Shown piece after piece: positions 34,685 through 56,691 of a stretch of DNA of 64,000 bases. How positions within the stretch are numbered: position 1 is the stretch's first letter; every line of letters begins with the position of its first letter. Under the pieces are notes generated by a model. It was not told the DNA's origin. It searched no databases and saw only the letters and a program-made list of their open reading frames with translations. The position numbers and the translations under genes are program-made. The stretch is from a bacterium (GTDB taxonomy: Bacteria; Patescibacteriota; Patescibacteriia; UBA1558; UBA10009): positions 672,977-736,976 of the forward strand of contig JABHGM010000001.1 in NCBI GenBank assembly GCA_018672055.1, written 5' to 3'.

Positions 34685-34687
34685 TTT

Positions 34688-38016: not shown

Positions 38017-38017
38017 G

Positions 38018-40702: not shown

Positions 40703-41738
40703 TTTTTAATTGTTTTCTTTCATTTATAAATTCTATTCTGTTTTCTGGACAAATACTACACATACGATTTTGTCCACGATTAGTATTGATTTGATTTCTT
40801 AATTTATTATACCTACTACCTTTCCAGATTTTTTTAAGTGATGTTTCAAATACATTACCCATAATATATTGAGAAAATAAATCATAACAACAAGGTACTA
40901 CATCACCATTAACATTAATTGCTGCTACACCTAATACTTGATCACAATGATTTGTAATTTTACCCTTTAATATAAACTGATCATTTTCATCTTTCTCATA
41001 ACGACTAAACTTTTGATCATTTGGTAAAAATTTCTTAGCCATCAGCTGCATATCTGGTGTATCATAAAGAAATATAGTTTTAGCAGCAAAGATATCTACA
41101 CCTAATTCCTTAGCAAATTCTTCCATTCTTTCTTTTTGATGCTCATTATGTTTCATTACTAAAAACTGTAATTCAATTTTAGGTAACTTTGAATTAGCTT
41201 TTTTCTTTGTAGCCATCATCATTTTAATATTATTTACTTCATTTTCGTAATTAGCACCTACTCTATACTGTTCTAATGTTTCTTGGTCTAAACCATCTAA
41301 ACTAATTATTAAATGTTTTAATTTACTTTCAATTATTCCATCACATAACTCTTGTTTATCTAATAATTGAGCATTAGTACTCATCTTTACATTAATTCCA
41401 GCATCAGTTGCATACTTTGCCATTTTAAACACCTCATCATTTAATAATGGTTCACCATAGTTAAATAAAAACATCTTATTAACATAACCTCTTACTTGAT
41501 CAATAATATACTTAAATCTATCAAAACTCATTAGTTCTGGTTTTCTATTTAGTCTACCTGAACCCGTTGGACATAAAGGACATCTTAAATTACAATAATT
41601 TACTGGTTCAACAAGTAAAGTAAAAGGAAGAGGCGGTACCATATCTTTAACTCCAAGTTTTCTTAGTAACTTAAACCAGAATAAATCAAATTTACCTTGT
41701 ATTAATAACTTAATAGCATTCTTTATTTTATTTATCAT
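40692..41738 (-). CDS. Radical SAM enzyme with C-terminal SPASM-like Cys cluster
   Basis: CNLRCPLCP (Cx3Cx2C) radical-SAM cluster near the N-terminus. C-terminal cysteines (...HCDQV...VPCCYD...CSICP) are consistent with an auxiliary-cluster SPASM/twitch domain. Confidence 0.7.
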   Translation of the reverse strand: MINKIKNAIKLLIQGKFDLFWFKLLRKLGVKDMVPPLPFTLLVEPVNYCNLRCPLCPTGSGRLNRKPELMSFDRFKYIIDQVRGYVNKMFLFNYGEPLLNDEVFKMAKYATDAGINVKMSTNAQLLDKQELCDGIIESKLKHLIISLDGLDQETLEQYRVGANYENEVNNIKMMMATKKKANSKLPKIELQFLVMKHNEHQKERMEEFAKELGVDIFAAKTIFLYDTPDMQLMAKKFLPNDQKFSRYEKDENDQFILKGKITNHCDQVLGVAAINVNGDVVPCCYDLFSQYIMGNVFETSLKKIWKGSRYNKLRNQINTNRGQNRMCSICPENRIEFINERKQLKNEA

Positions 41739-42643
41739 ATTAATATATCATTTATTTTTAATTTATTAGTTGACTCATAGTCATTTATTATTAGTAATCC
41801 ATCTTTTAACTTAATAACTGGTTTATCATCTATTACTTTTACTACTTCACCTATTTTACCATCTATATCCTCTTCATGTATTAAAGCTTTCCAAATAGTA
41901 ACTTTATTCTCTTTATTATAGCAGAAAGCGCCAGGAAATGGTTTAGTAACACCTCTAATTAAATTATATATTTCTCTTAACGTATTATTAAAATCAATTT
42001 TACCATCAGAAGGAGTTCGTTTAGGATAGTATGTTGACTTACCAGACTGCTTAGTTAATTTAATATTATTCTCTTTATATGCAGTTAATAGTTCTTTTAA
42101 TTGAACTTTAGCAGTTTCAATAGATTTTTCTTGTAGATTTGATATATCATCTAACTCTTCAATATTAAAATCCATAATATTAAATATAGGGCCTTCATCA
42201 GCACCAGTACCATATTTAAATAAATGATTATGAATTACTTTTCTATCTTCGATAATAGACCAATTAAGTGGTGACCTACCTTTACCTTCTGGTAAATACT
42301 TAGAACTACCATGAAAACCAAATACACCTGACTCAAATTTACTTAATATATTATCTGGTATTAAACGTTGCCAACCATATGATATTCCTATACTAAATTC
42401 ATTTGAATTAAAAAATTCTAAATCCTTTTTATCTTTTAGCTCATAATCATTTAATGCCAAATATTCAATATTATATTTAGAAGCTATACCTCTTAAATTC
42501 TGAAAACCTGATATATGATGCTTTTTAACACACTCTTCATCTAAAGAAACTAATAGATCTATTTTATAGCCTTCACTAATTAAATAATCAATTACTTTCG
42601 AAGAAGTACTCTTAACACCAAAAAATGTAATATTATATTTCAT
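41735..42643 (-). CDS. Formyltransferase-family protein, predicted sugar N-formyltransferase
   Basis: FHGSSKYLPEGKGRSPLNWSII matches the N10-formyl-THF transferase catalytic motif (cf. ArnA/Fmt HGSLLPxxRGxAPxNW). It sits beside FdtA-like and DegT genes. Confidence 0.65.
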   Translation of the reverse strand: MKYNITFFGVKSTSSKVIDYLISEGYKIDLLVSLDEECVKKHHISGFQNLRGIASKYNIEYLALNDYELKDKKDLEFFNSNEFSIGISYGWQRLIPDNILSKFESGVFGFHGSSKYLPEGKGRSPLNWSIIEDRKVIHNHLFKYGTGADEGPIFNIMDFNIEELDDISNLQEKSIETAKVQLKELLTAYKENNIKLTKQSGKSTYYPKRTPSDGKIDFNNTLREIYNLIRGVTKPFPGAFCYNKENKVTIWKALIHEEDIDGKIGEVVKVIDDKPVIKLKDGLLIINDYESTNKLKINDILI

Positions 42644-42645
42644 AA

Positions 42646-43407
42646 CTATTTATATAACTTTCTGAAACTTTGACAATCATGTTTCATAGTTTCAATAAAC
42701 TCTGTACTCTTTTGTTTAATTAAAATATCAAAAGCATCTAAATTTTCCTTATACCCTTCATTTGACCATTCATATGCGTGTGTCAATAACTGAGCTTTTT
42801 TAATATCATCATTAATCATATCTAGTGGATAGCCATAAGGCCATCTTTTTTCTGGTAACTTATTTGATTCAGCTAAATACAAAACATCTAATTTTTTATC
42901 TGCATCATCACCATTATATGTAAAGAACTCACTATTATATGGATTAATTATCCCTTCAATCCTAATATCTTTCTCTAAGACAGCTACTGGTGGTCTATGA
43001 TATGAAAAACGATCAATCTTCATGCCTAAACCATTTTCCATAACTTCAATTTCATTTTTAATTATTTTAGCGTAATCATTACCAGTTTTACTTTCTAAAT
43101 AAATATGTAAACCAATCTTATGACCTAATTTATGAATTTCATTTATTAAATCATGATTACTCTTTGAGAATATATTATATGCATTATTTCTAAGTTGAAC
43201 AAAGTAACTTGTTGAAATTCCCATTTCATTTGCTTCAAACTTTGCAAATTCATAGGCTCTTTCTATTGAAAACTCAACATCATGTCTTAAAACTAAAAAC
43301 TTTTCAGTTTCTTTATTAATCTCTGAATAATCCATTAAAGGTAAATACTTAGTAAGCCCTTCAATTATATTTTTATATTCTCCATACGAGAATGATTCTT
43401 TAAGCAT
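42646..43407 (-). CDS. Hypothetical protein (possible divergent deacetylase/hydrolase-like)
   Basis: 253 aa; the His/Asp-containing segments LRHDVEF and HKIGLH weakly recall metal-dependent hydrolases, but no firm family assignment. Confidence 0.35.
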   Translation of the reverse strand: MLKESFSYGEYKNIIEGLTKYLPLMDYSEINKETEKFLVLRHDVEFSIERAYEFAKFEANEMGISTSYFVQLRNNAYNIFSKSNHDLINEIHKLGHKIGLHIYLESKTGNDYAKIIKNEIEVMENGLGMKIDRFSYHRPPVAVLEKDIRIEGIINPYNSEFFTYNGDDADKKLDVLYLAESNKLPEKRWPYGYPLDMINDDIKKAQLLTHAYEWSNEGYKENLDAFDILIKQKSTEFIETMKHDCQSFRKLYK

Positions 43408-43409
43408 AA

Positions 43410-44270
43410 TTATTTATTTATAATTATTAAGTAATGTAATATATATCTTAATTTAAATATATTCTTAAACCAAGCTTTTTTAAAATATGTTCTAGCATTT
43501 AAATAATCTTTATTTTCTCTATAAAATAAAGCAAGTTGAAAATAATGTTTAGCTAGAATTTTTGGTATAGTATTATATTCATCAATATATTTTTCTATAA
43601 TCATTTTTCTACCACTTATCTTTTTTACTATATTACTACCAATATGATCATGTCCTTCTTTCATATTTAAATAAACTAAAGGTTTGTTAACTCCTAAACC
43701 TTTAAATTTTCTAGTTACTCTTATCATTAAATCAGGCTCTTGATGACTAACAAAGTTTATATCAAAATTACCAACTTCATCAAATACATATTTCTTAATA
43801 ATTAAAGTAACTGTTAAAAACCCTTTAAATCTTCTTAAGACAAGCTCATGATAATCAGCAACTCCTTCAGAAACTGAAGTATTTTTTTTATTATTATTTC
43901 CATAATCACACTCAACAGCACAAAAACAAAATCCAACATCTCTTCCTGTCTTTTCAAATTCTTTCATCTGTATTTCTAATTTATTTTCAAACCAAGCATC
44001 ATCATCATCTAAAAATGCAATATATTCACCTCTAGCATGTTTAAGACCCGTATTTCTAGCTGCTCCACCACCTTTATTTACTTCATGTTGAACATATTTA
44101 ACTCTTTTGTCATCTATCTCATTAATTACTGATTCTGCTCTAATATCCACACCATCATCAACTACAATAACTTCTAAATCAGTATATGTTTGATTTAAAA
44201 CAGAAAGCACAGAATCTTTAATTAATTCTGGTCTATTAAATGTTGGGATTATAACAGAAACTTTAGGCAT
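43410..44270 (-). CDS. Family 2 glycosyltransferase
   Basis: VSVIIPTFNRPELIKDSVLSVLNQTYTDLEVIVVDDG; DDD motif. Confidence 0.8.
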   Translation of the reverse strand: MPKVSVIIPTFNRPELIKDSVLSVLNQTYTDLEVIVVDDGVDIRAESVINEIDDKRVKYVQHEVNKGGGAARNTGLKHARGEYIAFLDDDDAWFENKLEIQMKEFEKTGRDVGFCFCAVECDYGNNNKKNTSVSEGVADYHELVLRRFKGFLTVTLIIKKYVFDEVGNFDINFVSHQEPDLMIRVTRKFKGLGVNKPLVYLNMKEGHDHIGSNIVKKISGRKMIIEKYIDEYNTIPKILAKHYFQLALFYRENKDYLNARTYFKKAWFKNIFKLRYILHYLIIINK

Positions 44271-45276
44271 GTTTTAAAATATTTTCTAATTTATTAGTTT
44301 GGTCTTGCCACTTAGGCATACTTAAAATATGATTATAGCCATTCTCAGCAATTTGCTCTCTTAAATCTTTATCTTTTACCAATAGTTCTAATTTATCTCT
44401 TAAATCATTCTGATCTTTTCTGCTAGCTACCATAGCTGTTTTATTTTCAAAAGCATAATCTCTTGATCCACCATTGTCATATGTTACTAAAGCACATTTA
44501 CAAGCCATAGCTTCCATTGAAGGAAGTCCAGAACCTTCATCCCATGATGGGCATAAAAAGATATTACAACTTGAATAAAGATCTTTTAATTTGCTTTGAG
44601 ATAAATTATAGTGATATTCATCACATGGTATATCTATATCTTTTTTTCTAACCCCAAATAATACTAGTTCAATATGAGGATAATTATTTTTTAAATCATT
44701 TACTATTTTAATACCAACCTTAGAACCTTTCCAATCATAATCATGATGTAGTAACAATATTCTTACTTTATTTAAATCTCTTTTACTTTTAACTTTATGA
44801 AATTGATTTAAATCTATAGGATTTAATAATAGCTCAGAATCTTGATTAAAATCATTTTTAACTATTCCTTTAAGCCAAGTAGATACAACTATTTTTTTAA
44901 ATGGCAAATTAAATACTTTTTCAACTTCTTCTTTATTACCATGATATAATCTTTCATCATGTTGAATAAAATGAATTTTCTTTCCTTTTAACTTATTAAT
45001 ATCATTTACATTATTCCAAGCAGAGGCGATTATAACATCAGACTCAGGAATATATTTATCACTAATTTCTTTTACTTTTATTATTCTACCTTTAAACTCT
45101 TTGAACCATTTAGGTTTATGTAAAATTAAATTTGAAATATTTCTGGTTAAAAAGCGTGAGTTCTTTACAATTACTTTTACCTTATAACCACGTTCAGCTA
45201 AAAAATGAGCATACATTAATATAATACGTACACCTCCAGATATTTTTAAATGTGGTAATAAAAAATTAATTCTCAT
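44263..45276 (-). CDS. Glycosyltransferase family 4
   Basis: GT-B C-terminal motif ...SWDEGSGLPSMEAMACKCALVTYDNGG. Confidence 0.7.
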   Translation of the reverse strand: MRINFLLPHLKISGGVRIILMYAHFLAERGYKVKVIVKNSRFLTRNISNLILHKPKWFKEFKGRIIKVKEISDKYIPESDVIIASAWNNVNDINKLKGKKIHFIQHDERLYHGNKEEVEKVFNLPFKKIVVSTWLKGIVKNDFNQDSELLLNPIDLNQFHKVKSKRDLNKVRILLLHHDYDWKGSKVGIKIVNDLKNNYPHIELVLFGVRKKDIDIPCDEYHYNLSQSKLKDLYSSCNIFLCPSWDEGSGLPSMEAMACKCALVTYDNGGSRDYAFENKTAMVASRKDQNDLRDKLELLVKDKDLREQIAENGYNHILSMPKWQDQTNKLENILKHA

Positions 45277-46304
45277 AACTCATTTATTAATTTATTTACT
45301 ATTATCTTTGATAAACACTTTTCTTTAAACAATTTATATCCATTATCAGCTATATCTCCTCTTAACTTACTATCATTCCTAAGTAATAGTATTTTTTCTA
45401 CTAAATCTTTACTATCTGCCTGATTACATAATAATATATTTTCTTTATCTTTAAATAATTCATTAATTGCAGGAGTATTAGCAGTAATAACTGCCTTTTG
45501 CATAGCTATTGCTTCATATACTTTATTTGGTATTACTCTAGTTGTTTTTTGACCCTTTCCAAATATACCTAAACAAATATCAGATTGACTAATATACTTT
45601 GTTAAATCGGAATATGATTGCTTCGAAATAAAATTTATATTATTTACATCTAACTTACTAGCTAGTTTAATTATTTTATCATGTTCTTGCCCAGAACCAA
45701 CTAAATTAAATTTAATATCCTTATATTCTTCTAAAGCTTTAGCTGCTTCAATAATATATTCTATTCCTTGCAATGGAATATATTTACCATGGAAATGAAT
45801 TACAAAACTATTACTTTGTTCTTTAACTTTTGGCAAAAAAACAGATTCATCACTACCAACTAATACTTTAATATATTTATTTCCTCCAAAAGTCGTTTTA
45901 AAATATTTAATATGCTCATTTGTATCAAGTAATACTTTATTTGCTAACTTAATACTTAACCAATCAAGCAACCAATAATACTTAGATTTAAAACTATTTC
46001 TAGAAACTAACTTCTTATCATTAACCCAAGAATCATATAATGAATAAAAAGCATCCCAAATAATTGGTTTATTACTTATTAACTTAGCAATAGGTACCAT
46101 AAATTGATTATCTGAATAACCAACTATTAATTGATCGTATTTATTTTCAACATCTTTATGTTTATTAATTAACTCTTTAATACTCTTAGCATTAACAAAA
46201 AGTACTTCTATATTATTCTCCTTAAAACCTTTTATTAAAACTCTATTCCTAGAATAATTAGGATCAAAATCTCCAAAATAACATATTGTATTTATACTAC
46301 TCAT
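45273..46304 (-). CDS. Glycosyltransferase, group 1-like (GT-B)
   Basis: GT-B fold pattern; 343 aa; overlapping boundaries with both neighbours. Confidence 0.6.
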   Translation of the reverse strand: MSSINTICYFGDFDPNYSRNRVLIKGFKENNIEVLFVNAKSIKELINKHKDVENKYDQLIVGYSDNQFMVPIAKLISNKPIIWDAFYSLYDSWVNDKKLVSRNSFKSKYYWLLDWLSIKLANKVLLDTNEHIKYFKTTFGGNKYIKVLVGSDESVFLPKVKEQSNSFVIHFHGKYIPLQGIEYIIEAAKALEEYKDIKFNLVGSGQEHDKIIKLASKLDVNNINFISKQSYSDLTKYISQSDICLGIFGKGQKTTRVIPNKVYEAIAMQKAVITANTPAINELFKDKENILLCNQADSKDLVEKILLLRNDSKLRGDIADNGYKLFKEKCLSKIIVNKLINEL

Positions 46305-47743
46305 TAATTTGCTTCTTTCTTTTTAATAAAAAACGATAGTAAAGCTTTAAAACCAGATGATAATATCTTTAAATCATCAAGTGATCTTATGCTAAGTAAT
46401 TTTTTAAAAATATACTTAGGTCTAAAGTAGAATCTTCGATACATGTGCTTATACAACTTCTTAATTTCATCAGCTGTTAAATTTTCTAATCTCATAACTG
46501 GCTTAGCTAAAGTGTAATCATCCCATTCATAGGTTAAAATTAAATCTTTAGACTTTGCCCAATCAAACATATCAGTTCCAGGAAAAGGTGTAGTAATATT
46601 TACAACAATTAAATCTGGATCCATTTTAATTGCAAACTTAGTATTTTTCTTTAAAATTTCCATATTATCTCCAGGGTTACCTACCATAAATGCTAAACGA
46701 CATTCTATACCAACTTGCTTAGTCCATTTAACTGCATTTTTAACTTGATCAATATTTATTTTCTTATTTATATTTCTTAAAACGCCTTCATCAACATTTT
46801 CTACACCATACATAATCTGATGGCAGCCAGAATCTTTCATCTTCTGAAGCATTTCTTTATCAATAAAATCTACTCTAGCAAAACAAGTCCATGATATATC
46901 AATATTATTTTCAAGTAATAGATCACATAACTTAACTACATTCTCTTTAAAAACAGTAAATGTATCATCATAGAAAAGTATTTGCTTTATGCCCCAATTA
47001 TCTATTAAATACTTAATCTCTTTAAATATAACCTCAGCTGATTTAAAAACTAATATATTACCTAAAGTCTTACTACAAAAAGTACATCTTCCAGGACAGC
47101 CACGTGAAGTCATCATGCTCATTGCTGGTAACCTTTTATATGAGCCTTTAGCTGGCTTATACTTTAGAACTGGTAATAAATCATATGCAGGAATTGGTAA
47201 TTCATCTAGCTTCATTATTCTATTTCTTGGCTTATTCTTAATTACTTCACCATCTTTCTTGTAAACAATGCCATCTATTTCTGAAAGTTCTTTTCCTTTA
47301 ACTATTTCAGTAACAGTTAATTCACCTTCACCAATTACTACAATATCAACACTTTCTTTAGCAATAACTTCATCAGTTACAAAAGTAGCATGAACTCCAC
47401 CAAACATTACTACAGCATCAGGATAATATTTTTTACATATCTCAGAAATTAAATATGCCTTTTTTATTGTACAAGTCATAGCAGTTAATCCAATATATTT
47501 AATTGACTCATACTTATTAACAAATTCTTTCTCAAAATACTCAGAAAATGATTCAACAGAAGGAGAATATACATTACAATCAACTATCTTAACTGAAAGA
47601 TCTTGCTCTCTTAAATAACCAGCAATAAAAGCTAATCCAAGAGGTGGAAAATTTGAATTAATTTCCTTCCATATATTTTCCTTATCTTCGTAAAATATGG
47701 GAGGAGATATTAATAAGCAATCAAGTTGTTTCTTCTCATTCAT
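46304..47743 (-). CDS. B12-binding domain radical SAM enzyme (class B rSAM)
   Basis: N-terminal cobalamin-binding-like Rossmann region (LDCLLISPP...PPLGLAFIAGYL) followed by MTSRGCPGRCTFC (Cx3? non-canonical CxxxxCxxC spacing of class B rSAM) and a TIM-barrel region. Confidence 0.75.
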   Translation of the reverse strand: MNEKKQLDCLLISPPIFYEDKENIWKEINSNFPPLGLAFIAGYLREQDLSVKIVDCNVYSPSVESFSEYFEKEFVNKYESIKYIGLTAMTCTIKKAYLISEICKKYYPDAVVMFGGVHATFVTDEVIAKESVDIVVIGEGELTVTEIVKGKELSEIDGIVYKKDGEVIKNKPRNRIMKLDELPIPAYDLLPVLKYKPAKGSYKRLPAMSMMTSRGCPGRCTFCSKTLGNILVFKSAEVIFKEIKYLIDNWGIKQILFYDDTFTVFKENVVKLCDLLLENNIDISWTCFARVDFIDKEMLQKMKDSGCHQIMYGVENVDEGVLRNINKKINIDQVKNAVKWTKQVGIECRLAFMVGNPGDNMEILKKNTKFAIKMDPDLIVVNITTPFPGTDMFDWAKSKDLILTYEWDDYTLAKPVMRLENLTADEIKKLYKHMYRRFYFRPKYIFKKLLSIRSLDDLKILSSGFKALLSFFIKKKEAN

Positions 47744-48441
47744 TATTTAAATAAATTATATTTTATAATATGCCAAAATGCAGCAATACCATCTTTCCAA
47801 TTGATCTTTTTACCCTCTTCATATGTTCTACCATAATATGAGATACCAACTTCATAAATTCTGAACTTACCTTTAGAAACAAGAGCTGTTATTTGAGGTT
47901 CAATACCAAATTTCTGAGCACTTAACCTATCTTTTAAATAATCAATTGCTTGCCTATTAAATGCCTTATAGCAAGTTTCCATATCAGTTAAAGTTAAATT
48001 AGTAAGCATATTAGAAAATGTAGTCAGCACTCTATTCCCTACTGAATGCCAGAAATACAAGACACGATGTGGTTTACTACTAATAAAACGTGAACCATAT
48101 ACAACATCAGCTTTATTTTCTAAAATTGGACTTAAAACATCAATGTATTCTTTAGGATCATATTCTAAATCAGCATCTTGAATTATTAAGATATCCCCTG
48201 TTGCTTCTTTAAAACCCAGAGTAATTGCAGAACCTTTACCACCATTTTCATCTTTCAGTATAACTTTATACTGATCCGTAAGCATTTTTAATATATCTCG
48301 AGTACCATCAGTTGATTTATCATCAATAATTATTATTTCTTTTTCAATATCTGGAAGTTCAACAGACTCTACTAATTTAAGTAATTTATTAATAGTATTT
48401 TTTTCATTATATACAGGAATTATAATTGATAGTTTTTTCAT
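47743..48441 (-). CDS. GT2 polyprenyl-phosphate glycosyltransferase (Dpm1/ArnC/GtrB-like)
   Basis: LSIIIPVYNEKNTINKLLKLV...IIIIDDKSTDGTRDIL...IIQDADLEYDP is a short (232 aa) Dpm1-type GT2. Confidence 0.8.
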   Translation of the reverse strand: MKKLSIIIPVYNEKNTINKLLKLVESVELPDIEKEIIIIDDKSTDGTRDILKMLTDQYKVILKDENGGKGSAITLGFKEATGDILIIQDADLEYDPKEYIDVLSPILENKADVVYGSRFISSKPHRVLYFWHSVGNRVLTTFSNMLTNLTLTDMETCYKAFNRQAIDYLKDRLSAQKFGIEPQITALVSKGKFRIYEVGISYYGRTYEEGKKINWKDGIAAFWHIIKYNLFK

Positions 48442-49793
48442 AAGTATTTAAAATTAAATTTTTTAAGTAAGGTATATAAACCGTAAAATGATAGCATAAA
48501 ATATACTGGTAATATTGGCATTATAAATCTAGGATTACCTTGTAAGAAAAATACAATCATATTAACACTCAAAACAAATAGTATTAATATATAAGCTAAA
48601 TCTTTTTTTTCTTTAATAACACTATAACTTCCATAAATCATAAATAATATAAATAGTAACCAATCAATTCTCATTAAAGTAATAACTAATACTTTAAATA
48701 ATGTATTACTATCTAAATCACTTTCATGAAATATACTAATCTGTCTTTCGTAATAATACATAGGACTATTTAAATTAATAACTTCTACCAAACCAAACAT
48801 AAAATACTTAAAAGGATTCTCTTTAATAATATTAATACCTTCTTTCTTCATTTCAATATCAATTAAATCGTAATTATAATTATCTTTATCACCTGTACGA
48901 CTTAAAACAAATTCATCTAAAGCATTTTTATTAATATAACTTTTTTCAAATACATATTCTGAATCAATAAATTTTCTAACTAAATATTCACCCGACATAG
49001 CTGATAATACATATTTTTTTACTTCTGATTTATCATATAGATTTTTAACAGCTCTAGTATATACCATATTGCCATCTCTCGAAGCTAATGCAAATCTATC
49101 AAAATTATTATAATTTCTACTTAACCAAGGTACAACAACAATACAAAACATAAGAAAAAATAATACTGATTTTTTCAAATTACCTTGCCAATCAGTTTTA
49201 ATATCTTTGAACAAGATTAATAATGGTACTAAACCAGCCATTAATATAAAAGCGCCTTTAGATAGAATTAATATACCTAGTATTATTCCAAGTAAAGCAT
49301 ATAAATAGTATTTATTCAGAGTTACAGCTTTATAATAAGTAAATAAAAATAGCATTACTAAAAATAAAGCTAAAGTTTCAGAATAAATAAAACTAGTATA
49401 AATATTTAAAATTGGATAAATTGCTATTAAAACTGTAACTATTTTTGCAACTAGCTCATTAAATATTCTTTTAGATAAATAATATGTAATTAAAACTGAA
49501 AAATATAATAATAAAACTTGAATAACCCTAACAACTCCTGGATTAACTCCAAATATTTTGTAAATAACAGACATAAAGAAAGAATAACCTGGTTCTCTCA
49601 TCATAGTTGATTCACCATCTAAATTATAACCTTCTCCATTTGTTAAACTAACAGCAATATTATGATACTGATATGCATCATCAGCTATTTCAAATTTACC
49701 AAAATTATTCCACCAAAAAATTGTACTAACAATTATTAATACTAAAAGTATTATAAAAAAACTATTCTTTTTCAATAAATTAATTAAATTCAT
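48438..49793 (-). CDS. GT-C fold glycosyltransferase (PMT_2/ArnT-like, GT39/GT83-type)
   Basis: Polytopic (451 aa) with a first-loop acidic motif FEIADDAYQYHNIAVSL...GEGY of the DE-motif type used by PMT/ArnT enzymes with polyprenyl-P-sugar donors. Confidence 0.55.
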   Translation of the reverse strand: MNLINLLKKNSFFIILLVLIIVSTIFWWNNFGKFEIADDAYQYHNIAVSLTNGEGYNLDGESTMMREPGYSFFMSVIYKIFGVNPGVVRVIQVLLLYFSVLITYYLSKRIFNELVAKIVTVLIAIYPILNIYTSFIYSETLALFLVMLFLFTYYKAVTLNKYYLYALLGIILGILILSKGAFILMAGLVPLLILFKDIKTDWQGNLKKSVLFFLMFCIVVVPWLSRNYNNFDRFALASRDGNMVYTRAVKNLYDKSEVKKYVLSAMSGEYLVRKFIDSEYVFEKSYINKNALDEFVLSRTGDKDNYNYDLIDIEMKKEGINIIKENPFKYFMFGLVEVINLNSPMYYYERQISIFHESDLDSNTLFKVLVITLMRIDWLLFILFMIYGSYSVIKEKKDLAYILILFVLSVNMIVFFLQGNPRFIMPILPVYFMLSFYGLYTLLKKFNFKYL

Positions 49794-51385
49794 AAATCAT
49801 TATTATTTTCATAAATTCTAAGTGAACTATTTATTAAACAAGCTTCTTCAGATTCAAGCCAACCTATTTCATTACATATATAATTATAGTAAGGATGTTC
49901 AAATATTTTAATTGGAGTATTCTCTGAAACAAATTTACTCCACTGCTCTAACTGTATAGGTACGTATGATGTCTCCCATGATAAAATAACATACTGAGCC
50001 TTAAAACATTCTTCATCTGTCATCTGACTATTAATAGAATAATCATCTAAATAAAATTTAACATTTTCAGCACCATTTCTGGTACCACAGATTTCTTTAA
50101 TTTCTTTAGATTGAGATTGTAAAAAATTTGCAGCATCATCATATGGATTATCAAAATTACTAAAAGTATATGCTGTTTTAAGACCGAAAAACATAATTAC
50201 TACTAATATTACAGAACCTAAAATAATTCGTATATTTTTAACCTTTATATAATTAATTAAACCAAAAACACCAAAAGAACAAACAATAGCAATAAGTGGT
50301 AACAAAGTAGCTAGGTTATAAGAAATTCTTAGTTTAATTAAGCTATAAACAATGAAAGGAATATAAGTAAGAGCAAAAATAAATGTATAATTATCATTTC
50401 TCCACCACTTTTTAATTATAAATAAAACTAAACTTAGAACAAATAAAGAAACAATAATTATACTGTCATAAACATTCATAAACTTAAAATATTGAAATAT
50501 AGAATCATTAACAGTGTATCTGTCTGCAAAGTCAGGAATAATTGTATAAATATGCTTAATCTCTTCTAAATAAGTAAAATATTTAGCTTGGAAATTCCAT
50601 GATTGAAAAACCCTTAACTTAATATATGTCAAAGTCTGAAATAAAATAATAAATGGTAGAGCATAAGGAATAAGTATTTTTAATCTTTCTTTTAACTTCT
50701 TCTTTCTTAAAGCTTGAACAATTTCAAAAATACCTATTATTCCAAAAAATAAAAATGTGCTGTAATGTACAGTAATTGTAAAACCAAATACTAAAGCTGA
50801 GAGCTTAAGATAACGTTTAGTATTTTTACTTTCGTTCCAAGTATAGAAATAAAAGAGTAAACCTAACATTAAGAAAAAAGCAGCCGTTGTTTGTGATAAG
50901 CCAGTTCTAGCAAAAAACACACTGTAACCAGAAATAGTAAGTAATAAAGAAGCTAGTAAACCAATTTTATGCTTACCAGTTATTTCAAAAGTAACCTTAT
51001 ATACTAAATAGATTGTAATTAATGAAAGAATAGCATTTAAAATTGTTGGAATATAATCCTGAACACCTAAAAATAAAGTTGGAATTGTAATTAATAGAAT
51101 ATAGCCTGGTCTTGCAAATGTATAATCTCTAAAACTACCTGAGAAAAATTCTTTAGCCCCATCTCTAATATTCGAAGTATCAAAACCATTAGCTACAAAA
51201 TTCTTAAAAAACTCAAAAGAATTCCTAAAGCTTTTAGCAATATTTAAAAATGATTCATCATCCCCATTAATTACACCACCCTGAATAATAAGACCATGAA
51301 AACGAAAATATGCAGCTAAAAGCAATATAAGTGCTAAAACTATTCTTATCTTATACTTTATTATGAATTCTTTTATATTTAACAT
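49790..51385 (-). CDS. GT-C fold glycosyltransferase (PMT_2/ArnT-like), second copy
   Basis: 531 aa, polytopic, with first-loop GVINGDDESFLNIAKSF motif; a paralogous arrangement with the upstream gene. Confidence 0.5.
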   Translation of the reverse strand: MLNIKEFIIKYKIRIVLALILLLAAYFRFHGLIIQGGVINGDDESFLNIAKSFRNSFEFFKNFVANGFDTSNIRDGAKEFFSGSFRDYTFARPGYILLITIPTLFLGVQDYIPTILNAILSLITIYLVYKVTFEITGKHKIGLLASLLLTISGYSVFFARTGLSQTTAAFFLMLGLLFYFYTWNESKNTKRYLKLSALVFGFTITVHYSTFLFFGIIGIFEIVQALRKKKLKERLKILIPYALPFIILFQTLTYIKLRVFQSWNFQAKYFTYLEEIKHIYTIIPDFADRYTVNDSIFQYFKFMNVYDSIIIVSLFVLSLVLFIIKKWWRNDNYTFIFALTYIPFIVYSLIKLRISYNLATLLPLIAIVCSFGVFGLINYIKVKNIRIILGSVILVVIMFFGLKTAYTFSNFDNPYDDAANFLQSQSKEIKEICGTRNGAENVKFYLDDYSINSQMTDEECFKAQYVILSWETSYVPIQLEQWSKFVSENTPIKIFEHPYYNYICNEIGWLESEEACLINSSLRIYENNNDL

Positions 51386-51393
51386 AAATATTA

Positions 51394-52857
51394 TTACCTA
51401 ATTAAATTTCTTGTTTCCTGACCTTTTGTTAGATGTGCATAGAAATAATAACCAGCATCATCAAATGATTTATACTTTATAGAATCTTTTATTGCGCCAT
51501 AAACAGCATCAATATTTTTTAAAGCAAATATTGAAAGATTAAATAAAAATTTTGGATTTTTAAAGAAGAACATAATATTATTCCATCTAACCTGTTTTAA
51601 AAATTTATTCCTATAAACTTCTAAAGTATGATGATCTAAATTAACTCTCCAAATCTTATTAGCTCTGACATACCATTTAGACATATCATTCTCAATAATC
51701 CTATCCTCTTTAATTGCTTGTTCATAAAGTTCTGAAGCTGGATAAGGTGTAGCAAAGTAAGCTGTTGAAAAATCAATATCAAGATCAGCAACTAAATTAA
51801 TAGTATCCATTAAATTTTCAATCTTGTCATCAGGAAATCCAAAAATAAATGAAGCCTGAGCTCTTAAACCAATTTTTTTTGTTAATCTAAGAGCATCTTT
51901 AATCTTATTTATATCAACATTCTTTTTAATTGCTTTTAAAACTGGTACTGAACCACTTTCAACTCCATATTCTACTTGAACACAACCAGCTCTTTTAACA
52001 GCTCTTAAGATTCTTTCATTAACTGTATCTACCCTGCCGTAACATGAAAATTTAATATTAAATTTCTTAGCAATGAATTTATCACTAAACTCTTCTATCC
52101 ATTCTGTATTCATTAAAAATGTATCATCCATAAAGTATAAGCTATCAATATTATGCTCCTTAATCATGAATTCAATTTCACTAATAACACTATCAACTGT
52201 TCTCCTTCTATACATTTTATTATATAAATAATTAACTCCACAATAAGTACATCTTCCAGGACAACCTCTACTGGTTGATAAATTAGCTGATCTTTCTGTC
52301 CAAACACCACGAATTAGACCTGGTGGTTGTAAATATGTATCATAATTAACAAGCTCTCTAGCTGGGAAAGGCATTTCATCTAAATCAGGAATAAGCTCTC
52401 TTGGTAAATTAATTGAAATTTGATCACCGTTTCTATATATTAAACCTCTAATATCTGACATATCAGTTTTTTTAGAATCAATTGCATTACAAAGCTCATT
52501 CATAGTAATCTCACCTTCACCATATACAATATAATCAATATTATTTTCTTCTAAAAACTTTTGCTTAAAATATGATGGATGAATTCCACCAGCAACAATT
52601 GGAAGATCTGGTCTATCATTTTTAAGCTTTTTAAAAATCTTTTGAGCAAAACGAAGTTGTGGTGTTGTTATACTAACACCAATAATATCAGCTTCTTGAA
52701 CTTTAGGATGATCAAGTAAATCAAAATCATTATCTTTAATATCTAAAAAGGTTACATTATGTCCCTGACTCTTAATATATGAAGCTACATAACCAAGTCC
52801 GAGTGGGAAAAAATTTAAATTTATATCTCTAGGATAAATTAAGCAAACGTTTGCCAT
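51394..52857 (-). CDS. B12-binding domain radical SAM enzyme (class B rSAM), second copy
   Basis: ANVCLIYPR...FPLGLGYVASYI B12-like domain plus TSRGCPGRCTYC cluster; a paralog of the 46304 gene. Confidence 0.75.
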   Translation of the reverse strand: MANVCLIYPRDINLNFFPLGLGYVASYIKSQGHNVTFLDIKDNDFDLLDHPKVQEADIIGVSITTPQLRFAQKIFKKLKNDRPDLPIVAGGIHPSYFKQKFLEENNIDYIVYGEGEITMNELCNAIDSKKTDMSDIRGLIYRNGDQISINLPRELIPDLDEMPFPARELVNYDTYLQPPGLIRGVWTERSANLSTSRGCPGRCTYCGVNYLYNKMYRRRTVDSVISEIEFMIKEHNIDSLYFMDDTFLMNTEWIEEFSDKFIAKKFNIKFSCYGRVDTVNERILRAVKRAGCVQVEYGVESGSVPVLKAIKKNVDINKIKDALRLTKKIGLRAQASFIFGFPDDKIENLMDTINLVADLDIDFSTAYFATPYPASELYEQAIKEDRIIENDMSKWYVRANKIWRVNLDHHTLEVYRNKFLKQVRWNNIMFFFKNPKFLFNLSIFALKNIDAVYGAIKDSIKYKSFDDAGYYFYAHLTKGQETRNLIR

Positions 52858-52878
52858 AATATTTTAGTAAGTTAATTT

Positions 52879-53541
52879 TTATTTTTTTAATAATATATTA
52901 AAATACAAGCCAAAACTCTTTGGTAAAAACTTAGGCATTGTATTTATTTTTTCTAATTCAAATTCTTTACTTGCAAACTTTAAAAATTCTTTATAATTAG
53001 TAACGTGATGATCATTTATTTCATTAAAACCTATTGTTACAAATAATTTCTCCATAAATTTATCTACTCTTGGCATACCAACTAATAATTCACCACCTGG
53101 TTTTAATATTCGATGCAATTCTTTTAAAATTTGATCAGGTTCTTTAATATGTTCAAATACAGAAAAAGCTACAATTAAATTAAAACTATTTGATTCTAAA
53201 TTAAGTGTAGTAATATCTTCTTGATACAGTTGAGCATTAATATTTAATTTATCTAAACTTTCTTTAACTAGCTTAGTATCTGCATCTAAATCAACAGCAG
53301 TTAAATTATTTGAAATTGAATTAAGCGTTGGTAATAAAAGTCCAGAACCAGAACCAAACTCTAATATTGAATCATATTCTTTATTCAATAAATCCAAACC
53401 CATTTGAATACGCTTAACATATAATTTACCAACAAGTGGTCTATAATAATAATCTAATGGATCACTAGGCCCATTAACTTTAAAAATTCCTGATTTTGGT
53501 AATATAAATTTTATTTTTGACATACAAACATTATTTTCCAA
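52879..53541 (-). CDS. Class I SAM-dependent methyltransferase
   Basis: ILEFGSGSGLLLPTL motif I; 220 aa. Confidence 0.7.
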   Translation of the reverse strand: MENNVCMSKIKFILPKSGIFKVNGPSDPLDYYYRPLVGKLYVKRIQMGLDLLNKEYDSILEFGSGSGLLLPTLNSISNNLTAVDLDADTKLVKESLDKLNINAQLYQEDITTLNLESNSFNLIVAFSVFEHIKEPDQILKELHRILKPGGELLVGMPRVDKFMEKLFVTIGFNEINDHHVTNYKEFLKFASKEFELEKINTMPKFLPKSFGLYFNILLKK

Positions 53542-54275
53542 TGCTTATCAGTAGCTACTTCATTCAAATTAAAATTTTCATAACATTCAAACTTAGTAAA
53601 GCCAGCTAAACCTAAAGCGTCTTTTATTTGATTAGGTGTCCAAAGATACTGATCTAAATCGTATTTATCTTCTATTACTTCCCCATTTTCTTTAGTTACT
53701 CGTAAATTATATCTAAGAGTAGTTTTTTGATTAATAAAATCAGTATTACTTTCTAACTTACAATTAATTTCTTCATTATTATTTTTAACTGAATATTCTT
53801 TACCCTTAGGTGGATCTAATAAAGCTGCAGAGCCATTCCAACAATCAAATATATATACAGAATCATCACTTAATGAATTATATATAGCATTAAAAAAACT
53901 AACTAACTCATTAAACTTAGGAATATATGTAACAACATTAAATAAGCTAAAACAAATATCAAAATCTTTTAAATCTAAATCTTGTATTCGTTTATCATAT
54001 ATTTCTACATTAGATATATTATTTTCTTTTATTTTCTCCCTACATCTAGTTATCATTTCTTGATCTACATCTATTGAAGTAATTGGAATATTTAATTTAG
54101 CTAGTTCTAAAGTATGACTACCAGTACCACAACCTATCTCTAATATATTTTTAGGTTCATGATTTAAATACTTCTTAGCAATTTCAAGAGACTTAAATAC
54201 TTCTTCTTCGTAATCTTTTGAAGTAAATAATATATCGTAATACTTGTAGAATAAATTACTCATAATACTTTTCAA
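53511..54275 (-). CDS. Class I SAM-dependent methyltransferase
   Basis: ILEIGCGTGSHTLELA motif I; 254 aa. Confidence 0.7.
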   Translation of the reverse strand: MKSIMSNLFYKYYDILFTSKDYEEEVFKSLEIAKKYLNHEPKNILEIGCGTGSHTLELAKLNIPITSIDVDQEMITRCREKIKENNISNVEIYDKRIQDLDLKDFDICFSLFNVVTYIPKFNELVSFFNAIYNSLSDDSVYIFDCWNGSAALLDPPKGKEYSVKNNNEEINCKLESNTDFINQKTTLRYNLRVTKENGEVIEDKYDLDQYLWTPNQIKDALGLAGFTKFECYENFNLNEVATDKHWKIMFVCQK

Positions 54276-55362
54276 TTACAGTACATACATAATCTAATTC
54301 TTCTTCACTAAGCGTTGGGAAAGATGGCAAACATATTCCATACTCATAGCCATATATAGAATTAGGATAATTTTTACTATCCAAAGTTTCTGGAATAATA
54401 TCTTTTAAATACTTAAAACATGGTTGCTTGTGAAGTGGATAGAAAAATGTTCTTACTTCAACTTCATTTTCTGACATATATTTCATTAACTTTTCAGCTT
54501 CTTCAACTAAAATTCCAACCCTAAATGGAATCCAATCAGCACCATCAAATGGTTTAAAGAAATTAATTTCTTTTATCTTACTTAACCTATTAAAGTAATA
54601 ATCTTTTATCTTATTCTTTCTTTCAATTATTTGATCTAACTTTCCTAGCTGAACAAGTCCTACAGCAGCTTGTAAATCAGTCATTCTAAAATTATAACCT
54701 ATTTCTGGATGTATAAATGAACCTCTTTCAATACGACCCTGATTTCTTAAATATAATAACTTCTCATACTTTTTCTTATCATTAGTAACTACTAAACCAC
54801 CTTCTGCTGTAGTAATGGTTTTATCAGCAAAAAATGAAAATATACTAACATCACCATAAGTACCAGCATGCTTATCTTTGTAATGGACACCAATAGCTTG
54901 AGCAGCATCTTCAACAACACTCAAATTGTGTTTTTTAGCAAATTCCATTACTTCATCCATTTTAGCCATAGTGCCATAAATATGGACAGGCATAATAGCT
55001 TTAGTCTTAGGATTAATAAATTTCTCAGCACTATCTAAATCAAGCTGAAAATTCTCTTTATTTACATCAATAAATACTGGTACTCCACCAGCCATTTCAA
55101 CTGCTGATGCTGAACCTAAAAATGTAAAATCAGGAACTAATACTTGATCTCCTGGTTTTAAATCAATTGCTCTTAAAGCTAAATAAATTGCTAAAGTACC
55201 ATTAGGAGCTAACACGCCATACTTAGCACCAGTTAAATCTAATAACTGCTTTACAAATTCTTTTGACTTAGGTCCTTCAGTAATCCAGTTTTCTGTAAAA
55301 CATCCTTCAATCTCTTTATATTCTTCTTCTCCAACCCATGGTTTAAATTGATTTACTTTCAT
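54256..55362 (-). CDS. DegT/DnrJ/EryC1/StrS-family sugar aminotransferase (second copy)
   Basis: ...GVLAPNGTLAIYLALRAIDL...; PLP-Lys region FSFFADKTITTAEGG. Confidence 0.8.
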   Translation of the reverse strand: MKVNQFKPWVGEEEYKEIEGCFTENWITEGPKSKEFVKQLLDLTGAKYGVLAPNGTLAIYLALRAIDLKPGDQVLVPDFTFLGSASAVEMAGGVPVFIDVNKENFQLDLDSAEKFINPKTKAIMPVHIYGTMAKMDEVMEFAKKHNLSVVEDAAQAIGVHYKDKHAGTYGDVSIFSFFADKTITTAEGGLVVTNDKKKYEKLLYLRNQGRIERGSFIHPEIGYNFRMTDLQAAVGLVQLGKLDQIIERKNKIKDYYFNRLSKIKEINFFKPFDGADWIPFRVGILVEEAEKLMKYMSENEVEVRTFFYPLHKQPCFKYLKDIIPETLDSKNYPNSIYGYEYGICLPSFPTLSEEELDYVCTVIEKYYE

Positions 55363-55363
55363 A

Positions 55364-56680: not shown

Positions 56681-56691
56681 ATTATTTTATT

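Follow-up and report, generated by a model that had tools for sequence, protein, structure and literature searches.

ArnC and ArnT are the Und-P-L-Ara4FN synthase and the lipid A Ara4N transferase (family GT83), respectively, and ArnT carries an Asp residue in its first loop as well as a further periplasmic Asp (D158 region). In Haloferax, AglJ acts with a Dol-P-sugar-dependent GT-C in N-glycan decoration, and PpgS/Rv3779 is the mycobacterial counterpart. Protein O-mannosyltransferases (PMTs) of family GT39 are defined by a full PMT domain together with a C-terminal PMT_4TMC domain, and in eukaryotes by a MIR domain as well.

In Gram-positive bacteria, multi-component transmembrane glycosylation of cell-wall polymers is carried out by GacI/GacJ/GacK/GacL of Streptococcus pyogenes (GAS), CsdA-F of Lactococcus lactis, and GtsABC of Bacillus anthracis (reviewed in PMC8035078). 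A GT-A enzyme makes a C55-P-sugar, a flippase moves this product across the membrane, and a PMT_2-type GT-C with an acidic outer-loop motif then decorates a surface polymer with the sugar (PMC8035078). The GAS variant uses a GT-A enzyme that lacks a membrane anchor, along with a partner protein and a Wzx-type flippase, the proposed flippase being GacK (PMC8035078). Furthermore, a single cell-wall-polysaccharide locus of Streptococcus mutans encodes two Und-P-sugar synthases of the GT2 type and two partner transferases, and the resulting pairs (SccN/SccM and SccP/SccQ) install side-chain sugars at different positions (PMC11754754).

We propose that a locus in a 64-kb window (the whole stretch of DNA that was analyzed) is a further member of this already known kind of system, in Patescibacteria. 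On balance, we regard it as probable that the locus encodes a multi-component transmembrane glycosylation module inside a large operon for surface glycans. The host is a tiny uncultured Patescibacteria (CPR) bacterium. The ORF list places two polytopic proteins of 531 and 451 aa, followed by a 232-aa GT2, at positions 47743-51385 of the minus strand, and these coordinates exactly match those of the earlier note. In the direction of transcription, the gene order is a B12-binding radical-SAM gene (487 aa, 51394..52857), GT-C531 (49790..51385), GT-C451 (48438..49793), GT2_232 (47743..48441), and a second B12-binding radical-SAM gene (479 aa, 46304..47743). As read from the sequence, the 531/451 and 451/GT2 junctions are both ATGA, and the three genes are translationally coupled via these 4-nt overlaps. 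The upstream radical-SAM gene ends 8 nt before GT-C531, and the stop codon of GT2_232 overlaps the downstream radical-SAM gene by 1 nt (TAATG). The earlier note had placed the GT2 immediately upstream of the membrane proteins with a 4-nt overlap. The overlap holds, but transcription runs along the minus strand, and the GT2 therefore lies downstream of both GT-C genes.

The module is embedded in a glycan-biosynthesis operon of 23 genes (35949..59182, minus strand), and neighboring genes in this operon abut or overlap. Pfam and NCBIfam scans identified five GT1/GT4, three GT2, and two GT-C transferases, as well as five SAM methyltransferases plus a methyltransferase-like domain that is fused to a GT2. 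The remaining assignments include two DegT aminotransferases, FdtA, a formyltransferase, a SPASM radical-SAM protein, the two B12 radical-SAM proteins, and a Wzx/MOP-family flippase (39203..40702, minus strand; Pfam Polysacc_synt_3, 5e-74; NCBIfam MOP flippase, 4.5e-60), whereas no Wzy, WaaL, or LCP was found in the operon by these scans. Wzx is the sole flippase candidate in the operon; there is no GtrA-family protein within the window and no GacJ/DPM3-like small membrane partner among the operon ORFs. The fused GT2 (55364..56680, minus strand) has a methyltransferase-like N-terminal region and an AglJ/Dpm1-like domain (aa ~195-427) that matches the NCBIfam models for AglJ (2.1e-28) and dolichyl-phosphate hexose transferase (2.9e-15). 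Its identity with GT2_232 across the entire GT2 domain is 25%, and the protein might be a second lipid-linked sugar synthase. Neither this second GT2 nor the flippase of the same operon was mentioned in the earlier note.

In the mechanism that we favor, GT2_232, which has no TM segment, would act at the cytoplasmic face of the membrane, where its family resemblance suggests that it uses a nucleotide sugar to add a single sugar residue to polyprenyl phosphate, giving a polyprenyl-P-sugar. The lipid-linked sugar would then be flipped, presumably by the operon Wzx in a role comparable to that of GacK. Outside the membrane, GT-C531 and GT-C451, which are paralogous but divergent, would each transfer the sugar to an acceptor by using a loop-1 Asp (D42 and D39, respectively). 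The acceptor is most likely a glycan built by the GT1, GT4, and GT2 enzymes of the operon, and each of the two GT-Cs would serve its own position or its own acceptor; a surface protein is a possible acceptor as well. Because the operon carries a second Dpm1-like GT2, two donor/transferase pairs analogous to SccN/SccM and SccP/SccQ are plausible. The Wzx protein might instead flip an oligosaccharide made by the operon rather than a lipid-linked monosaccharide. Extracytoplasmic glycosylation was the central proposal of the earlier note, and as the main reading it is supported by the Pfam and Foldseek results, the loop-1 Asp residues, and the class of the GT2, as described below.

Judging from these Pfam matches, AF2 models searched with Foldseek, profile matches, invariant loop-1 Asp residues, and an HHalign comparison, both membrane proteins belong to the GT-C fold glycosyltransferase superfamily. 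The HMM check that had been suggested gave 41.9 bits for GT-C451 on Pfam PMT_2 (PF13231; gathering score 26.1) and 26.5 bits for GT-C531 on Pfam PMT (PF02366; gathering score 22.7). The AF2 models have pLDDT values of 88.5 (GT-C451) and 94.2 (GT-C531), and their significant Foldseek matches in the PDB (E<=1e-3) are exclusively GT-C enzymes (17/17 and 28/28, respectively; probability 1.0, TM-score about 0.5-0.6). HHalign aligns the GT-C451 and GT-C531 families with a probability of 99.3 over the N-terminal ~245 aa, and thus the two proteins have a GT-C N-terminal module in common. GT-C531 has ~12-13 TM helices and an extracytoplasmic alpha/beta domain of ~115 aa at its C terminus in which four Cys residues are kept in close orthologues. 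GT-C451 is without a C-terminal soluble domain and carries a helical insertion of ~130 aa (about aa 232-363).

The first-loop DD/DE motifs described in the earlier note also survive proper alignment. GT-C531 carries D42-D43-E44 just after TM1, where D42 is shared by all 48 homologues compared (18-55% identity) and aligns with the Asp of the ArnT loop-1 sequence 'PDEGRY'. Similarly, GT-C451 carries D38-D39 just after TM1; here D39 is present in all 13 homologues and aligns with the same ArnT residue. Other invariant residues are Y43 (loop 1), E139, and R422 in GT-C451 and R160 in the GT-C531 family. The Lys/Arg-rich N termini that precede TM1 suggest that loop 1 is located outside. Both proteins thus have the fold and the conserved Asp, and presumably carry out GT-C chemistry.

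The PMT match of GT-C531 bears on protein O-glycosylation, an acceptor route raised in the earlier note that is one possibility among others but finds no specific support here. The donor pathway would be the same, and one or both GT-Cs, like a bacterial PMT or TfpW, would glycosylate Ser/Thr residues of a secreted, S-layer, or pilin protein. GT-C531 is above the gathering score, but its match is partial (profile positions 87-209 of 245), and no PMT_4TMC or MIR domain was detected in either GT-C at E<=0.01 (Pfam). For the same reasons, neither protein is classified as a strict protein O-mannosyltransferase (CAZy GT39). The loop-1 consensus of the GT-C531 family, 'DE', does resemble that of PMTs, its orthologues are named 'glycosyltransferase family 39' by NCBI, PgfS of the S. 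mutans protein-glycosylation system is among the proteins that GT2_232 resembles, and Wzx weakly matches an O-glycosylation flippase model (9e-34, below the cut-off). However, the window contains no Ser/Thr/Pro-rich ORF, the module is part of a polysaccharide-type operon that includes Wzx and many GT1/GT4 genes, and the characterized PMT_2-type bacterial GT-Cs that PMC8035078 lists decorate glycopolymers. We therefore consider O-glycosylation unlikely.

Less probable still is en-bloc transfer or polymerization, whereby one GT-C would use a Wzx-flipped polyprenyl-PP-oligosaccharide and so supply the ligase, oligosaccharyltransferase, or polymerase activity that the operon lacks. The most plausible candidate would be GT-C531, which has a Cys-rich outer domain, and the other GT-C alone would use the GT2 product. 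The Foldseek matches of GT-C531 comprise STT3, AglB, ALG12/9, Pmt4, ArnT, PglB, DPY19, AftB, and Emb. Its family profile matches AglB (9e-4), STT3, and ArnT, and STT3 and AglB are its best matches overall. Indeed, the top Foldseek matches of both GT-Cs are oligosaccharyltransferases, which is a counterpoint to the main reading. GT-C451 has profile matches to PIG-M (1e-3) and ArnT (1.7e-3). The ArnT matches are weak for both proteins (E of 0.05 for GT-C531), there is no ArnT NCBIfam match for either at E<=0.01, and the public annotation already reads 'ArnT-like'. The two active sites differ because, at the second acidic position of ArnT, GT-C451 has S138-E139, whereas GT-C531 has S164-Q165, lacks the acidic residue, and carries an invariant Arg instead.

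This difference, the STT3 and AglB matches, and the presence of Wzx in an operon without Wzy, WaaL, or LCP are consistent with such a role for GT-C531, but to our knowledge all characterized PMT/PMT_2-type enzymes use polyprenyl-P-monosaccharide donors. No WWD motif occurs in either GT-C; WW pairs are confined to 'KKWWRN' (aa 325-330), which lies in a short inter-helix loop, and to 'FWWNN', where TM1 ends. WWDxG is likewise missing from the C-terminal domain of GT-C531, which is small for such an enzyme, and the absence of this motif together with the size of this domain (none in GT-C451) argues against placing either protein among the STT3/PglB/AglB oligosaccharyltransferases. An O-antigen ligase or polymerase, which the earlier note had named as the competing assignment, was also rejected: Wzy_C (PF04932) is absent from both proteins at E<=0.01, and there is no WaaL or Wzy structure among the Foldseek matches of either. 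The Wzy_C model works on this genome, as an ORF elsewhere in the window (1164-2636) scores 54.4 bits, and the presence of this gene also counts against en-bloc transfer or polymerization by a GT-C. Finally, top matches to STT3, AglB, and PglB are reported for bona fide monosaccharide-transferring GT-Cs, whose HHpred matches are ArnT, STT3, AglB, PglB, and AftD (PMC8035078).

The remaining component of the proposed module, GT2_232, matches Pfam Glycos_transf_2 (2.3e-33), and its best NCBIfam models (AglJ, 2e-31; ArnC; PgfS; PpgS) are all polyprenyl-P sugar synthases, although it falls far below every equivalog cut-off (e.g., 109 versus 325 for AglJ). When compared with the PDB, its family profile aligns with the dolichol-P-mannose synthase PfDPMS (2.9e-30, positions 2-204) and with ArnC (1.6e-24, positions 2-216), whereas ordinary GT2s align over the N-terminal ~115 residues only. 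The DxD motif is D89-A-D91, with D91 invariant. This GT-A fold, DxD motif, C-terminal interface region, and near full-length alignment fit the DPMS/ArnC/GtrB type, in agreement with the Dpm1/ArnC-type assignment made earlier. Based on these resemblances, GT2_232 probably attaches a sugar to a lipid carrier in the membrane. Its orthologues across Patescibacteria are 64-77% identical and usually adjoin a B12-radical-SAM gene.

The arrangement recurs in other genomes. The complete order is kept in MAG JBDRDI01 (L002), and a Portnoybacteria MAG (L003) keeps the GT-C pair, followed by a different Dpm1-like GT2. In four further contexts, other GT-C-type genes lie no more than ~3.7 kb from GT2_232 orthologues. 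Three of these contexts (L082-84, L085/86, and L088) have PMT/PMT_2 matches, and the fourth (L089) has a GT-C-type gene without a Pfam match that is nevertheless homologous to those of the other three. In Niyogibacteria, the GT2_232 orthologue overlaps a GT-C gene by 4 nt, as it does here. Dpm1-like GT2s also adjoin PMT_2 genes at many unrelated metagenome loci: 31/71 distant PMT_2 loci have a same-strand GT2 at a distance of up to about 2 kb. Eight GT2s beside GT-C genes were sampled (six from distant PMT_2 loci, plus those of L003 and L085), and all eight best match AglJ, PpgS, PgfS, Dol-P-hexose transferase, or ArnC models. A candidate C55-P-sugar synthase is therefore co-encoded with a GT-C by gene overlap here and by adjacency in L002, L003, L085/86, L088, L082-84, and the distant loci. 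This pairing is frequent but not obligate, since two Buchananbacteria loci with GT2_232 orthologues have no GT-C within 6 kb and L007/L008 carry GT-C451 orthologues without a nearby GT2. Given the curated thresholds passed, the confident structure models, and the conserved synteny, the module is far beyond chance.

The least likely alternative is that GT2_232 is an ordinary elongating or core GT2 of a CPR-wide pathway, with the GT-C donor coming from the second GT2 or from elsewhere, a reading in line with its lack of TM helices, its far greater conservation and wider distribution than the GT-Cs, the loci without a GT-C within 6 kb, and the different GT2 of L003, but opposed by its near full-length alignment to polyprenyl-P sugar synthases only, by the 4-nt overlaps with GT-C genes here and in Niyogibacteria, and by the existence of TM-less members of this class (PpgS, human DPM1, and GacI).

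Both flanking genes encode Pfam B12-binding and Radical_SAM domains, as the earlier note had recognized, and the two proteins are 28% identical to each other. The best NCBIfam model for the 487-aa protein is BchE (208 bits, below every equivalog cut-off), and that for the 479-aa protein is HpnJ (231 bits, cut-off 577). Orthologues of the former (60-65% identity) occupy the same position, with adjacency to GT-C531 kept in L002 and L003/L004. Orthologues of the latter (65-69% identity) adjoin GT2 orthologues in L002 and L081, and this protein and GT2_232 are encoded by the most conserved genes of the module.

Among the known systems, ArnC/ArnT resembles the proposed module in that ArnC ranks second among the solved relatives of the GT2_232 family, ArnT is matched by both GT-C profiles with the loop-1 Asp aligned, and a DegT aminotransferase and an ArnA-like formyltransferase are encoded in the operon as well. 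However, there is no ArnT/ArnC equivalog score here, ArnD and ArnE/F are missing, a monoderm-type CPR cell lacks lipid A as an acceptor, and the formyltransferase beside FdtA and DegT fits a nucleotide-linked 3-formamido-3,6-dideoxyhexose route. For Dpm1/Ppm1 with PMT (GT39), Pyrococcus furiosus DPMS is the best solved relative of GT2_232, and GT-C531 passes the PMT threshold with a DE-type loop-1 motif, but the PMT match is partial, PMT_4TMC/MIR are missing, and the window offers no candidate protein acceptor. Both Dpm1-like GT2s of the operon have AglJ as their best NCBIfam model, and the model for the mycobacterial PpgS, a short TM-less polyprenyl-P-sugar synthase, also matches GT2_232. Unlike the archaeal system, GT2_232 scores well below the AglJ cut-off and its host is bacterial, as indicated by MurJ, LepA, FtsX, and DivIC in the window.

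As in the S. mutans Scc locus, the operon has two Dpm1-like GT2s and two GT-Cs, but one of these GT2s carries a fused methyltransferase-like domain, and no rhamnan backbone genes are evident. The Gac/Csd/Gts systems share the synthase-flippase-GT-C scheme, with the TM-less GT-A and Wzx-type flippase of GAS as would apply here, and the HHpred match list of their GT-Cs agrees with the Foldseek list of GT-C531 and GT-C451. They differ in that the present locus has no GacJ-like partner or GtrA, and has two adjacent divergent GT-Cs, two conserved B12 radical-SAM flanking genes, and a Patescibacteria host. The less ordinary features of this further member are the 64-77% identity of GT2_232, its usual B12-radical-SAM neighbor, and the second Dpm1-like GT2 in the operon.

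The feature at 47743-51385 lies within an unbroken minus-strand run of 23 genes (35949-59182) that abut or overlap one another. Its three genes are GT-C531 (49790-51385, 531 aa) and GT-C451 (48438-49793, 451 aa), which encode polytopic membrane proteins, and GT2_232 (47743-48441, 232 aa), which encodes a Dpm1/ArnC-type GT2. Genes with B12-binding and Radical_SAM domains (B12-rSAMs) are located upstream of GT-C531 (51394-52857) and downstream of GT2_232 (46304-47743), all on the minus strand. Direct reading of the sequence revealed 4-nt ATGA overlaps at the GT-C531/GT-C451 and GT-C451/GT2_232 junctions, a 1-nt overlap (TAATG) between the GT2_232 stop and the next start, and 8 bases between GT-C531 and its upstream gene. 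The ORFs, junctions and Pfam domains thus agree with the coordinates and the two flanking B12-rSAM genes described in the earlier note. The adjacency and 4-nt overlap that it reported also hold, but its placement of the GT2 upstream of the membrane proteins does not. Because all of the genes are on the minus strand, the order is B12-rSAM, GT-C531, GT-C451, GT2, B12-rSAM, and GT2_232 follows the GT-Cs. A scan for promoters and terminators returned matches at chance level only.

The window has a G+C content of 23-30%. An ENA metagenome contig (525 kb) is identical to it, and the same proteins are found on approximately 60-73 contigs of up to 963 kb. Bacterial housekeeping genes are present (MurJ, LepA, FtsX/E, DivIC and ribosomal proteins), as is DUF4012, and the nearest relatives are Patescibacteria MAGs.

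Both membrane proteins are predicted to be GT-C-fold enzymes on the combined basis of Pfam, family profiles and structural models. GT-C451 matches Pfam PMT_2 (41.9 bits, gathering score 26.1) and GT-C531 matches PMT (26.5 bits, gathering score 22.7), as the HMM check proposed in the earlier note had anticipated. Neither matches Wzy_C at E<=0.01, although this model does work on the window, where it gives 54 bits for the ORF at 1164-2636. Single-sequence phmmer searches of the PDB with GT-C531 and GT-C451 yielded only noise, and family profiles were needed for matches: archaeal AglB (9e-4), STT3 (3e-3) and ArnT (0.05) for GT-C531, and GPI mannosyltransferase I (1e-3) and ArnT (1.7e-3) for GT-C451. 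AlphaFold models built from family alignments have a pLDDT of 94.2 and pTM of 0.94 for GT-C531, and 88.5 and 0.90 for GT-C451. All significant Foldseek PDB matches of both models are GT-C enzymes (STT3, AglB, PglB, ALG9/12, Pmt4, Pmt1/2, ArnT, DPY19, AftB and Emb), with no WaaL or Wzy among them. The GT-C identity originally assigned to both proteins is therefore retained. An O-antigen ligase or polymerase identity was rejected given the lack of a Wzy_C match and of a WaaL-like fold, and oligosaccharyltransferase membership was rejected because the WWDxG motif is absent. The same list of ArnT, STT3, AglB, PglB and AftD matches is obtained for proven monosaccharide-transferring Gram-positive GT-Cs (PMC8035078), and therefore oligosaccharyltransferases among the top matches are no argument for that function here.

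The first-loop acidic motifs noticed initially withstand proper alignment. In GT-C531, a Lys/Arg-rich N-terminus and TM1 are followed by G-D42-D43-E44, and D42, R160 and G201 are invariant in 48 homologues (18-55% identity). In GT-C451, K8-K9 and TM1 are followed by A-D38-D39, and D39, Y43, E139 and R422 are invariant in 13 homologues. Profile alignments place both D42 and D39 on the Asp of the ArnT loop-1 motif ‘PDEGRY’. The two families are paralogous across their first ~245 residues (HHalign probability 99.3, E 6e-21). The second acidic position is not shared: E139 of GT-C451 corresponds to Q165 of GT-C531, which has the invariant R160 instead. Beyond the ~245-residue module, their architectures diverge. 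GT-C531 ends in an alpha/beta domain of ~115 aa, whose four Cys residues are kept among close orthologues and so suggest an extracytoplasmic, disulfide-bonded domain, whereas GT-C451 lacks a C-terminal domain and carries a helical insertion of ~130 aa. Because of these differences, the two enzymes are unlikely to be redundant with each other.

There is good family-level evidence that GT2_232 is a candidate polyprenyl-phosphate sugar synthase. The protein carries a D89-A-D91 motif and has no hydrophobic segment. Among NCBIfam models it scores highest with AglJ (2e-31), ArnC, PgfS, PpgS and dolichyl-phosphate hexose transferase, in each case under the equivalog cut-off. A profile of 24 family members matches the PDB entry for P. 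furiosus dolichol-P-mannose synthase at 2.9e-30 (profile positions 2-204), three ArnC structures at ~1e-24 to 1e-22 (positions 2-216) and GtrB at 2e-19, whereas alignments with ordinary GT2 enzymes are confined to the N-terminal nucleotide-binding half. The protein encoded at 55364-56680 (-) joins a methyltransferase-like N-terminus to a second AglJ/Dpm1-like GT2 domain (aa ~195-427; AglJ 2e-28, Dol-P-hexose transferase 3e-15), which is 25% identical to GT2_232 across the whole domain. Two lipid-P-sugar synthase candidates thus stand alongside the two GT-Cs in the operon. The orthologue of this fusion protein in L002, a locus in MAG JBDRDI01, occupies the same position (470 aa, 34% identity).

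Relatives of the GT-Cs were recovered far more completely by exhaustive representative search (551) than by word-indexed search (4 and 16). Orthologues are rare: a search with four close sequences found them in 2 of 185,579 species representatives and in none of the JGI metagenomes. L002 keeps the gene order in full (MT, kinase-like, GT1, MT::GT2, MT, rSAM, GT-C531, GT-C451, GT2, rSAM, ..., GT1, ..., GT1, GT2, SPASM), with identities to the window of 73% for the GT2, 65-69% for the rSAMs and 52% for the GT-Cs. A Portnoybacteria MAG (L003) retains the rSAM-GT-C531-GT-C451 triad followed by a different Dpm1-like GT2, and its true GT2_232 orthologue (61%) lies at a distance of 10 kb, with a B12-rSAM on one side and a short PMT_2 protein on the other. 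The GT2_232 family is much larger, with >8000 matches at E<1e-10, and the best 120 non-identical matches are 64-77% identical and come from Buchanan-, Portnoy-, Falkow-, Niyogi- and Parcubacteria.

We sampled six further contexts of GT2_232 orthologues. A GT-C-type gene lies within ~3.7 kb of the orthologue in four of them, and in Niyogibacteria the two genes overlap by 4 nt. Three of these neighbours match PMT/PMT_2; the fourth (L089) is a 373-aa protein with no Pfam match that belongs to a family of short GT-C-like proteins in which a loop-1 ‘GDxxxY’ motif is invariant. The remaining two contexts, both from Buchananbacteria, have no GT-C within 6 kb. Members of this short membrane family (332-373 aa) are located near GT2_232 orthologues at L003 802-1800, L082 9138-10247, L088 8551-9582 and L089 6696-7817, and share an invariant K-E pair in addition to the loop-1 motif; the window has no orthologue. 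In the Portnoybacteria loci L082-L084, an N6_N4 methyltransferase/EcoO109I-type restriction-modification pair and two small ORFs (6743-9084) split the GT2_232 orthologue from its PMT_2 neighbour. Another compared locus, L007, has a homologous glycan cluster in which a 318-aa ORF (4874-5830), which by eye we take to be Fic-like, lies between a methyltransferase and the GT1_343 orthologue.

Among 71 distant metagenomic PMT_2 relatives, 31 have a GT2 on the same strand within ~2 kb, and many of the other contigs are too short to show such a neighbour. Furthermore, all eight sampled GT2s that adjoin GT-Cs (six distant PMT_2 loci, L003 and L085) match polyprenyl-P sugar synthase models best. The donor-synthase/GT-C association thus recurs across very different lineages, which is the strongest non-experimental argument for functional coupling. 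Less ordinary, though not part of the feature as first described, are three observations: GT2_232 is very highly conserved among Patescibacteria, it is habitually paired with B12-dependent radical-SAM enzymes, and its GT-C partner is swapped lineage by lineage.

No genes of the cluster are better conserved than GT2_232 and the two B12-rSAMs, which are 60-77% identical across candidate phyla, and a B12-rSAM adjoins or is one gene away from the GT2_232 orthologue in seven of the nine contexts examined. Within the window, the two B12-rSAMs share only 28% identity, and their best NCBIfam matches, HpnJ (231 bits) and BchE (208 bits), are far under cut-off. Others occur near GT2_232 orthologues in L081 (857-2302, 4513-5985 and 10151-12310), L087, L088 and L089; in Buchananbacteria loci there are three, of which one is a 719-aa fusion with a SAM-methyltransferase domain. 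Given this conservation and pairing, and the changing GT-C partner, a speculative and rather improbable reading is that GT2_232 and the B12-rSAMs form a conserved, cobalamin-dependent core for surface-glycan synthesis throughout the Patescibacteria, in which the rSAM would modify a lipid-linked intermediate before variable, lineage-specific GT-Cs transfer it to the outside. The enzyme might C-methylate the polyprenyl-P-sugar or rearrange it in the manner of HpnJ, or it might methylate the isoprenoid carrier. Literature searches turned up no report of either a B12-rSAM/GT-C association or this CPR module. The usual pairing would imply that scavenged cobalamin is needed for surface-glycan synthesis in these auxotrophs.

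The operon also encodes a Wzx/MOP flippase (39203-40702, -), five GT1/GT4 proteins, one TuaG/WcaA-like GT2, two DegT aminotransferases, FdtA, an ArnA-N-like formyltransferase, five SAM methyltransferases and a SPASM radical-SAM enzyme. FdtA, DegT and the formyltransferase (36913-38467 and 41735-43407, -) fit a route to a 3-formamido-3,6-dideoxyhexose-type sugar. The Arn (lipid A Ara4N) pathway was considered for the DegT, formyltransferase, GT2 and GT-C genes and rejected, since there is no ArnD or ArnE/F, no score reaches equivalog level and the formyltransferase lies beside FdtA. The 253-aa product of an ORF (42646-43407, -) that separates the formyltransferase gene from a GT2 gene has no match in Pfam or NCBIfam. 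The second gene of the operon (57804-58424, -) encodes a P-loop kinase-like protein of 206 aa, and divergent genes beside the operon encode the ATP sulfurylase proteins CysD (59514-60317, +; 360 bits, cut-off 195) and CysN (60319-61524, +; 340 bits, cut-off 336). Together these may supply activated sulfate for a sulfated glycan, although no accompanying sulfotransferase was seen. Convergent with the operon (32664-35626, +) are genes for a GalE/RmlB-like epimerase/dehydratase, for Gmd (540 bits, above cut-off) and for an Fcl-like GDP-fucose synthase; these enzymes would provide GDP-6-deoxyhexose.

Elsewhere in the window, a separate polysaccharide locus (176-7482, -) has two GT2 genes, two GT1/GT4 genes, a second Wzx (6025-7482) and the Wzy_C protein (1164-2636), which is the sole Wzy/ligase-type gene in the window. 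An 888-aa DUF4012 protein (27656-30322, -) has no NCBIfam match and is adjoined by two GT4 genes (30381-32572). The window contains no priming phosphoglycosyltransferase, LCP ligase or GtrA, nor other GtrA/GacJ-like small membrane proteins. Adjacent ORFs at 16454-16906 (+; 150 aa, four predicted TM) and 16993-17490 (+; 165 aa, three predicted TM) match no family and are not GtrA-like by Pfam.

We propose that GT2_232 would form a polyprenyl-P-monosaccharide at the inner face of the membrane. The lipid-linked sugar would then be flipped, a step for which the operon offers no candidate other than Wzx, in a role like that proposed for GacK. Finally, GT-C531 and GT-C451 would each use their loop-1 Asp to transfer the sugar to an extracytoplasmic acceptor, a step in which the modelled fold and the residue are in evidence and the chemistry is a prediction. 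Because polysaccharide-type genes surround the module, this acceptor is more likely to be a glycan than a protein. Extracytoplasmic glycosylation was also the original prediction, which named protein O-glycosylation as one possibility. Protein O-glycosylation would use the same donor logic, but the domain architecture is not that of GT39 enzymes, and a search of the 64-kb window for Ser/Thr/Pro-rich proteins gave no candidate acceptor; we consider it unlikely. GT-C531 might instead act on a PP-linked oligosaccharide as the missing ligase, oligosaccharyltransferase or polymerase of an operon that lacks Wzy and LCP, and its active-site residues do differ. Nevertheless, its PMT-type family assignment, small outer domain and lack of WWDxG make this quite unlikely. 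That GT2_232 is not the donor synthase, as its far wider distribution than the GT-Cs might indicate, is also quite unlikely, given that it resembles DPMS and ArnC along almost all of its length and overlaps GT-C genes by 4 nt in two lineages.

CPR bacteria are ultra-small and mostly episymbiotic, and their surface is the contact with the host. We know of no experimental work on how this surface is constructed. The donor-synthase/GT-C module offers a concrete, testable three-enzyme handle on it, and because GT2_232 is among the best-conserved glycosylation genes of the group, knowing which lipid-linked sugar it makes would be informative for thousands of genomes. Public records name these proteins ‘phospholipid carrier-dependent glycosyltransferase’, ‘ArnT-like’ or ‘GT family 39’. 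The GT2 plus GT-C architecture itself is established (ArnC/ArnT, GtrB/Gtr, Ppm1/PMT, PpgS/Rv3779, GacI/GacL, CsbB/YfhO and Scc); to our knowledge no such system has been studied in this phylum. In Streptococcus mutans, SccN/SccM and SccP/SccQ add glucose to different positions of the wall polysaccharide (PMC11754754). With its two Dpm1-like GT2s and two probably non-redundant GT-Cs, the operon described here has its nearest worked example in that system.
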